Assembly: GCA_052174475.1 (NCBI GenBank)
Contig: JBQMRO010000009.1
Span: 2,915-66,914, forward strand
From: Arsenophonus sp. NC-CH8-MAG3
Lineage (GTDB): Bacteria > Pseudomonadota > Gammaproteobacteria > Enterobacterales > Enterobacteriaceae
Length of the DNA: 64,000 nucleotides
Reading direction: 5' to 3'
Shown one piece after another: positions 5,727-7,757 of this stretch (positions are counted from its first letter, which is position 1; every line of letters begins with the position of its first letter). The notes under the pieces were generated by a model, which had not been told where the DNA came from, made no database searches, and saw nothing but the letters and a program-made list of their open reading frames with translations. The translations under genes were made by a program, and so were the position numbers.

Positions 5727-7757
5727 CTAACTTACCCATAAAGTCAGCCTATTTTTAGCAACCTGCAGTAATCTCTCACTGAGTAATTCTCCATCGGGAA
5801 AGCGTAGTTTAGGGGCAATTTCTGATAAAGGATAAAGCATAAATTCCCGTTCTTTAAGGGCATAATGAGGGATAGTTAAACACGCTGTTTGAATAATCTG
5901 TTGGCCGTATAATATAATATCCAAATCAAGCGTTCTTGGCCCCCAACGATTGGTTTTACGTATTCTACCATGCATTGATTCAATCAATTGGGTATGTTCA
6001 AGTAGGGTTTTTGGTAATAACTCAGTATCTAATGCGATAACGACATTGAGATAGTCAGGCTGATCTTGTGATCCCATCGGTTTAGTTCGGTAGAAAGAAG
6101 AAACAGCAACTGGCTTGGTATTTGGTAATTGCTGTAATTCTTTAATAGCAAGTTGCACTTGCTGTAAAGGGTTATTTAGGTTGCTGGCAATAGCAATATG
6201 AACACGTTCCATCTTTAATTTACTCTGTTGTTTTATTAGTTTATGGTTAGGATGATTTCGGCGCTGTGTCCAGCTACGATGATGAGTTAGTATATTATCT
6301 ACTTCTAAGATCATTTTATGTTGTAGATTATTATTGGCTTGTTGAAATTCAGACCACAAGTAAGGTAGCTCTTCTAATTCAGATCGTGGTTCCACATTGT
6401 AACGTAGCTCTAGTAGAGCAAACGCAGCACAAAATTTTGGATGTTCAAGTAATTTGTCTATTTTTTTTCCTTGGCATTGAGAAAGTTGTAATTGTAGCTG
6501 CCAAATATCACGCATTATTGAAGTAAGCCGTTTAGGAATAGCAATAGAACGACATTGCTCATTAAGAATATCATTCATTGTGATAACAAATGCTTCGTAA
6601 TATGGTAAGCCACTTTCTTGAGAAAGTCTTTCTGTATGTTCTGTTAGAGGATACCATAACATGGTTGCAAATAAGAATGCAGAATTAACGTGTTTATTGT
6701 TTTTTATTTGATAATCAGTATCTTGCAGAACCTTATTAATGATAAGCTCCATCGGAGAATTATTATTAGCAGTAAAGTTTCGTTCAATTAACGGAAACAA
6801 TGATTGAAATAGTTTATAACGTCTTAATTGTTGATAAGTTTGGTAACCTTTACCGGTCTGAAGTAATTTAAGCAACTCTTTAAATAGACGAGTTGATGGA
6901 ATGTTTTTTAATAAAAATGCCAGTTGTGGAATAGAATTAGCAGTTTCAAAATCAATTTGCATATTTAATTTGCTAGCAAATCGAATAGCGCGTAGCATCC
7001 TAACAGGATCTTCTCGATAACGAATTTTTGGATCACCAATTAACCGAATGATGCCATTTTTTAAATCCTCAAATCCACCAACATAATCACGTAGGGTAAA
7101 ATCGTTAATTCGGTAATATAAGCTATTTATAGTAAAGTCACGTTGAATAGCATCTTCTTCAATATTACCAAAAACGTTATCTCTCAGTAATATACCACTT
7201 TGAGCTTGGTGAGCTATATTATTACAATTAGTATCAGTTGGTTCTTGAGAACCACGAAAAGTAGCAACTTCGATTATTTCGTAACCAAACATGATATGTG
7301 CTAAACGAAAACGGCGTCCAACTAAACGACAATTACGAAACAATTTGCAAATTTGTTCAGGCGTTGCATTGGTGGTAACGTCGAAATCTTTAGGTTTTTT
7401 ACCTAATAGTAAATCTCTGACACTACCCCCGACTAGATAGGCTTCATAACCAGCATTATTTAGACGATAAAGTACTTTTAGTGCATTATTACTGATGTTT
7501 TTTCTGGAAATAGGATGTTTATCTCGCGGAATTATAGATATTGAAATATTTATAGAAGAGGCGGGTGTGAGTTTGCTTGTTAATTGAGTACTTTTAATAG
7601 TTTTTATACTCTGATATTTTTTTGTTAGTAAAGTTTTCACCTTAGTTTTAGATCGAGTATTAGTTACAGAACTATTATAAAACTTCTGTTTATTTCGATT
7701 ATTTTTTTCTTTTCGTTTTAATAAATTACGATAAAAATTAGCTACTCGTATAAAAAT
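5727..7757 (-). CDS. pcnB-folK: Poly(A) polymerase I fused in frame to HPPK (PcnB-FolK), predicted AUU start, about 676 aa
   Basis: [25 protein letters not shown] then [22 protein letters not shown] with no stop between; folK ATG at 6212; frame open upstream of the track start 7640 to ATT at 7757 behind GGAGGTG. Confidence 0.9.

Follow-up and report, generated by a model that had tools for sequence, protein, structure and literature searches.

In Escherichia coli, pcnB, encoding poly(A) polymerase I (PAP I), and folK, encoding the folate enzyme HPPK, form one transcription unit (PMC4161252), and pcnB starts at an AUU codon behind a good Shine-Dalgarno (SD) sequence (PMC5499595); the passage of the latter paper that cites Binns and Masters 2002 names only two E. 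coli genes that begin at AUU, pcnB among them. Across the Enterobacterales the operon consists of abutting or overlapping but separate genes, and in the Yersinia, Serratia and Arsenophonus genomes we parsed, the pcnB stop usually falls within ~8 nucleotides (nt) of the folK start. Here we describe a locus with the same gene order and orientation, and likewise with both proteins complete, in a 64,000 nt stretch of Arsenophonus sp. NC-CH8-MAG3 (assembly GCA_052174475.1, contig JBQMRO010000009.1, positions 2,915 to 66,914; the whole stretch is referred to as the window). It differs from the enterobacterial operon in that the intergenic stop is absent, 2 nt have been deleted, a TAA in the folK frame has been lost and gluQ survives upstream as a remnant, leaving a single open reading frame (ORF), pcnB::folK, on the minus strand at 5727-7757. 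The run-on fusion is genuine and inherited, neither an artefact nor a decaying gene, and we consider it probable that it is near-neutral and yields a fused protein.

HPPK occurs naturally in multifunctional proteins, with an N-terminal partner in Streptococcus pneumoniae SulD (FolB-HPPK, 2CG8) and yeast Fol1 (2BMB) and a C-terminal partner in Francisella HPPK-DHPS (3MCM), and all three structures matched the FolK part of our query. Because HPPK works with N-terminal partners in the first two, an active HPPK is the default expectation on fusion, and by this analogy the domain is very probably active within the Arsenophonus protein. These natural fusions, however, are ancient, fixed and join HPPK to neighbouring folate steps, whereas the Arsenophonus fusion is young, can be reversed, and has as partner an enzyme that adenylates RNA 3' ends and has no link to the pathway. 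The other system for comparison is termination-reinitiation: the ancestral junction has TAA-AG-ATG and a very weak SD, and so resembles that of a coupled pair, whereas the fused clade lacks the terminating stop, so ribosomes would not be delivered to the folK ATG by that route. A literature search found no paper describing a PcnB-FolK fusion, nor any that names these MAGs (metagenome-assembled genomes); the process, coupled operon neighbours fused by stop loss, is a known one, and the enzyme pair has not been described before.

A single reading frame spans pcnB and folK

The minus strand is free of stops in this frame between 7772 and 5730, and the frame closes at a TAG (5729-5727), giving 676 codons plus the stop and a predicted product of 78.8 kDa. 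The junction reads CAG AGT AAA TTA AAG ATG GAA CGT, with the folK ATG at 6212. A first-pass annotation, made from the letters of the window, had proposed that no stop separates the two genes and that they form one frame of about 676 codons, and this is confirmed from ATT 7757 to the TAG. The ORF listing opens the frame only at a GTG (7640), giving a 637 amino acid (aa) version, yet the true start of pcnB is almost certainly the ATT at 7755-7757 (minus strand, as for all features below), which occupies the same position as the AUU start of E. coli pcnB. The sequence GGAGGTGTATT-ATT-TTT-A(T/C)A is kept genus-wide around this probable start, and the SD sequence GGAGG (7764-7768) lies 6 nt upstream of the ATT with an anti-SD duplex of -10.6 kcal/mol. 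The peptide after the ATT start, I-F-I-R-V-A-N-F, matches the N-terminus of E. coli PcnB, I-F-T-R-V-A-N-F.

Residues 2-72 (7542-7754) form a Lys/Asn-rich N-terminal extension with a low predicted local distance difference test score (pLDDT), ~44 residues longer than the N-terminus of E. coli PcnB; it is similar in length across the nine Arsenophonus pcnB genes compared, eight of which have 512-517 codons. The PAP I core, residues 73-486 (6300-7541), comprises the head, RNA-binding and Arg-rich C-terminal domains, identified by Pfam and by alignment to structures in the PDB. It aligns end to end with residues 1-414 of 3AQK/3AQL/3AQM (E = 1e-176), shows no notable gaps against the E. coli PAP I structures 3AQK-3AQN, and retains an intact nucleotidyltransferase motif (GG.VRD...DFD type). 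In the 637-aa version, PolyA_pol (PF01743), PolyA_pol_RNAbd (PF12627) and PolyA_pol_arg_C (PF12626) were found at residues 67-461, far above cut-off, and HPPK (PF01288) at residues 482-610 (123.9 vs. a cut-off of 25.7). NCBIfam coverage was nearly complete for both halves, spanning positions 26-462 of the 469 in the PcnB profile and 3-159 of the 159 in the FolK profile. TIGR01942 (PcnB, 493.9 bits vs. 305.65) and TIGR01498 (FolK, 134.7-138.4 vs. 54.1) were passed, whilst the stricter PcnB equivalog NF008634 fell slightly short (690.8 vs. 702, on the GTG-started 637-aa version) and the enterobacterial FolK equivalog NF007595 was under its cut-off (210-214 vs. 252).

The FolK (HPPK) module runs for 161 codons from the ATG at 6212 (5730-6212) and is recognised by Pfam and TIGR01498. 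Against Yersinia pestis HPPK (2QX0, E = 2e-62), residues 516-674 match positions 1-159, and the module also aligns with E. coli HPPK. In an alignment to 1DY3/1HKA, R82, R84, W89, R92, D95, D97, H115, Y116, R121, F123, N55 and Y53 are all kept, these being the Mg-, ATP- and pterin-binding residues in E. coli numbering. The FolK motifs noted in the first pass, including PH(Y), are present, and where GSN would stand the protein does indeed have ASN.

Between the two enzymes, the PcnB C-terminal tail serves as the linker to FolK (residues 487-515, ~29 residues, 6213-6299). Its last seven codons, KQQSKLK, lie in a frame that is new to pcnB, the unfused form ending in KNNRVN*. In an AlphaFold2 (AF2) model the FolK part has a pLDDT of ~90 and the PcnB body lies in the 80s, with residues 484-513 below 50, which indicates that this basic linker is a flexible, disordered tether. 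The predicted masses of the two parts are 60.3 kDa for PcnB and 18.5 kDa for FolK.

The fusion arose in two steps and has reversed once

Comparison with related symbionts bore the fusion out. The nearest relatives of the source genome are Arsenophonus sp. NC-PE1-MAG3, EOPcoel-MAG3, NC-TX2-MAG3 and NC-WZS1-MAG3, and the fused frame is present in the source genome, NC-PE1-MAG3, EOPcoel-MAG3 and NC-WZS1-MAG3, all of them species-level metagenome-assembled genomes (MAGs). The 33 nt junction is identical in three other MAG assemblies, each from a different sample, and one nested relative, NC-TX2, is unfused: the codon that is CGA at 6258-6260 in the window, 16 codons before the folK ATG, is TGA there, and the genes are separate again. 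A maximum-likelihood tree of pcnB+folK recovered the five genomes as a clade (100/100) with NC-TX2 inside a group of EOPcoel, NC-TX2 and NC-WZS1 (100/99). As NC-TX2 is nested inside the fused clade, its TGA is secondary; on this tree, the fusion has a single origin and the genes were split again afterwards in NC-TX2. Synonymous divergence (dS) between fused genomes is 0.11-0.25, by which measure the fusion has persisted through species-level divergence, and among the genomes compared it is neither unique nor fixed.

The junction is also covered by a Logan contig from an insect metagenome, built by another assembler from a sample other than the window's own. It carries no indel at the junction, none of the 40 listed differences (48 in all) makes a stop there, and its junction differences match the EOPcoel MAG. 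A search of sequencing runs matched only one DNA run, with 9% of the sampled words, and no RNA run.

To place the changes in order we aligned the junction over at least 15 Arsenophonus genomes. In most of the genus, including A. nasoniae and Ca. Phlomobacter fragariae, the pcnB tail has a run of six A residues (A6), the sequence before the folK ATG is GAGTTAATTAAAG-ATG, the pcnB TAA lies 2 nt before that ATG, and a second TAA, in the folK frame, lies at -9. The sister pair NEOnobi and AFZbadi has A5 and GAGTAAATTAAAG-ATG, with the pcnB TAA 7 nt before the ATG. The focal clade has A4 (6231-6234) with the same GAGTAAATTAAAG-ATG and is without a pcnB stop, the 2 nt loss putting pcnB into the folK frame. 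At 6219-6221 the window has AAA where A. nasoniae, Ca. Phlomobacter and the majority of the other Arsenophonus compared have TAA. That TAA was the only folK-frame stop upstream of the ATG, and the focal clade shares the T>A change with NEOnobi and AFZbadi. Since this change the folK frame alone, among the three, has had no TAA shortly before the ATG. The alignment shows a two-step origin, A6 > A5 > A4 plus TAA > AAA, in which an ancestral pcnB ended at the TAA 2 nt before the folK ATG, one change removed 2 nt from the A-run 19-24 nt upstream of the ATG, and the other converted the sole folK-frame TAA to AAA.

With the later CGA > TGA reversal, the locus offers a dated example of a gene fusion that can be read base by base. 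The ancestral genes were already tightly linked, probably by termination-reinitiation coupling, and because of this linkage joining them would have changed their stoichiometry little. The case shows that tightly coupled operon neighbours can fuse and split again, probably at little cost.

Two further candidates were examined and rejected as fusions: a 682-aa 'open frame' (G030/L028), in which a same-frame TAG separates pcnB and folK, and the locus of an Arsenophonus relative (G005/L005), which has two in-frame TAAs. The latter (L005, G005:C13) carries another, independent rearrangement of the same junction, a 16 nt tandem duplication (ACACGTCGTCGAAATC) in the pcnB tail, ~40-70 nt upstream of the folK ATG, so that pcnB now terminates at a TAA 27 nt short of the folK ATG. 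Within the fused genomes, a 'QLQLQL' repeat (CAA/CAG-CTN) in the Arg-rich domain of PcnB, at 6483 in the window and also in the relatives L032/P0003, differs in copy number, with a 6 nt insertion in EOPcoel and in the X1 contig.

Both halves are constrained and the fusion is probably tolerated

The ratio of nonsynonymous to synonymous differences (pN/pS), summed over six pairs of fused genomes, is 0.22 in the PcnB core (73-486), 0.45 in the N-terminal extension (1-72), 0.43 in the tail or linker (487-515) and 0.14 in folK, and by these values both halves are under purifying selection. The pairwise dN/dS (omega) of pcnB is 0.18-0.27, equal to most comparisons involving unfused relatives. A frame of 2 kb in DNA of 31% G+C is not expected by chance, and in a decaying genome such a frame is itself evidence of selection. 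The first-pass annotation had raised the idea that folK keeps a drifting pcnB free of stops. We found no support for it, as the core has the same constraint as in unfused relatives, aligns over the full length of PAP I and keeps its AUU and strong SD, and a drifting pcnB is rejected by dN/dS. As for folK, it is single-copy, and folB and folP are intact in 6/6 genomes checked, and HPPK activity is therefore required.

Whether the joined frame is itself under selection can be gauged from the tail, where a stop would result from any of ~13 single-base changes within the final 30 codons. Given a total neutral branch length of ~0.43 substitutions per site for the clade, estimated from pairwise dS with equal mutation rates assumed, ~1.9 nonsense changes are expected under neutrality against the one seen, in NC-TX2 (Poisson P of one or fewer, ~0.43). 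Retention of the fusion is compatible with neutrality, and it is probably tolerated rather than selected.

Several observations pull the other way. This test of near-neutrality is low in power, comparing one event with 1.9 expected, and the frame has stayed open in 4/5 lineages with 33 nt around the ATG invariant, which fits selection for the fusion or for an internal start. The head domain of PcnB was poorly modelled by AF2, which we attribute to a shallow alignment of 53 rows. The junction evidence consists of assemblies, together with the Logan contig from another sample. FolK, finally, carries G8A (the GSN to ASN change) and R110C, though both positions also vary in unfused Arsenophonus. 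ASN is found in unfused AFZbadi, NEOnobi and genome G007, and since the same change occurs where the genes are separate, it is unrelated to the fusion and we rejected it as a sign of either decay or fusion.

Products of the fused frame and alternative explanations

Ribosomes starting at the inefficient AUU of pcnB would read through folK to give the 78.8 kDa protein. As pcnB is under purifying selection and is followed by no stop, its working PAP I should be the ~79 kDa fused protein, barring cleavage or an unrecognised frameshift, and we infer that a fused PAP I-HPPK polypeptide is made. The first-pass annotation had offered either a bifunctional PAP-HPPK protein or a folK tied to a drifting pcnB; the missing stop and the constraint on pcnB favour the former, whilst the latter falls away.

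A free 18.5 kDa FolK may also be made, from the unchanged, A/U-rich, weak-SD ATG. The translation-initiation region retained around this codon, 33 nt from -24 to +9 (6204-6236), is invariant in 5/5 genomes of the clade, although part of it lies within the fast-evolving tail, and the ATG context is the least structured of 12 in-frame ATG sites. The SD of folK was described as weak in the first pass and is so, at -2.4 kcal/mol, vs. -7.1 in Yersinia and -8.8 in Serratia; this is native to the genus and not a result of the fusion, as unfused A. nasoniae has -2.5 kcal/mol, and suggests that translation of folK in the genus depends on termination-reinitiation at the neighbouring pcnB stop. A weak SD does not exclude initiation, because SDs as weak or weaker precede ~40% of the window's long ORFs. 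In NC-TX2, where the stop lies 45 nt upstream of the folK ATG behind the same upstream sequence, folK has an omega of only 0.04-0.07 against its closest relatives. FolK is still constrained there, from which it follows that a separate FolK can be produced, either at this signal or through reinitiation. A consensus scan for an internal folK promoter within pcnB gave no evidence of one, with 12 promoter-like sites vs. 16 in shuffled sequence.

These observations bear on the foremost alternative, that HPPK comes mainly or solely from the fused protein, initiation at folK having depended on the lost pcnB stop and the frame being kept by selection. We regard this as unlikely, and its stronger form, an adaptive or obligate bifunctional enzyme whose coupling disappeared with the pcnB stop and left only a weak folK start, as slightly less likely again. 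The weak SD of folK relative to Yersinia and Serratia fits it, as does the position of the pcnB stop in unfused Arsenophonus, 2-7 nt from the ATG, which suggests a coupling-dependent ancestor, and the fusion has been kept in 4/5 lineages over dS of 0.11-0.25 with folK strongly constrained. In NC-TX2, however, folK remains constrained even though a stop lies 45 nt ahead of that ATG, the nonsense count fits the neutral expectation, weak SDs are commonplace among the long ORFs of the window, and an invariant ATG with its surroundings would be needless if the fusion alone mattered. Were the fusion the main or only HPPK source, folate synthesis in the symbiont, and with it folate provisioning of the insect, would be coupled to AUU-limited translation of an enzyme of RNA decay and turnover; the evidence favours instead a near-neutral, tolerated fusion.

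Less probable still is that the locus yields two separate proteins and no stable fusion, either because ribosomes slip in the tail to an out-of-frame TAA (G-TAA-AT-TAA-AG-ATG) and reinitiate, or because a protease cuts within the linker. The other two frames do each hold a TAA, at 10 and 5 nt upstream of the ATG, the linker is basic and predicted to be disordered, and the NCBI annotation of these MAGs has FolK as a separate 161-aa protein. Yet the tail has no visible slippery heptamer or long homopolymer, its only run being A4, the out-of-frame TAAs are leftovers of the ancestral stop region and not new, there is no sign of programmed frameshifting, and the annotation follows pipeline rules, not data. 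Rescue by transcriptional slippage at the A-run was likewise set aside, the run being only 4 nt long. An assembly or sequencing error at the open junction, or an inactivated pcnB that is still open by chance, is very improbable and largely refuted, for although the source genome is a MAG of 102 contigs and rich in pseudogenes, the junction is identical in three MAGs from different samples, the Logan contig from another assembler has no indel there, A4 is not an error-prone run, and pcnB has a pN/pS of 0.22 with every domain complete.

The near-neutral, run-on fusion that we favour also has a consequence for annotation. Among the proteins listed for the fused MAGs, the separate 161-aa FolK alone has an accession and PcnB does not appear, so these genomes could wrongly seem to be without poly(A) polymerase I.

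PcnB-HPPK fusions elsewhere

A search of 1.84 billion cluster representatives returned, among the 150 best matches, five fusions of PcnB with a full HPPK and a sixth in which the HPPK is partial. The distant fusion representatives (P0046, P0047, P0066, P0073, P0147) stand for clusters at 50% identity with one or two members each. A word-based search added a Salmonella-like group (P0006/P0032-P0045) of 629-630 aa, present on dozens of contigs, and one Salmonella-like fusion is deposited at NCBI as 'PcnB [Salmonella enterica]' with 601 aa. These sporadic ORFs share the PolyA_pol + RNAbd + arg_C + HPPK architecture of the Arsenophonus protein. P0007, in Logan run DRR581932, lies in the order dksA - pcnB::folK - panB - panC, and in P0006 and P0007, the two junctions examined, the fusion was made by a frame change near the pcnB stop. 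Such recurrence is as expected, because pcnB and folK abut or overlap in many Enterobacterales. The Arsenophonus fusion differs from the others in its presence in at least four species-level genomes, over dS of up to 0.25, and in its documented reversal, whereas elsewhere the fusions are scattered clusters, except for the Salmonella-like group.

Among the separate genes, pcnB of Yersinia similis Y228 (L057) is open for only 236 codons from the IPR..H motif, with its stop 614 nt before folK, which in this free-living species may reflect a nonsense or frameshift allele.

Genome context

The source genome is 2.34 Mb in 102 contigs at ~31% G+C, and only ten ORFs of at least 250 aa, counted from the first ATG, occur in the 64 kb window. 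This scarcity of long ORFs fits extensive pseudogenisation, and on this measure the genome is decaying. No ORF of at least 64 aa was found in the 4.6 kb upstream of pcnB (7760-12379), no Rfam family matched over 5000-13000, and dksA was not found in the window with the 131-residue C-terminal part of DksA from locus L108 as query. In enterobacteria gluQ (yadB) precedes pcnB, and a degraded remnant of this gene, with an in-frame stop, was located at 8048-8271 on the minus strand by tblastn with the GluQ protein of L108.

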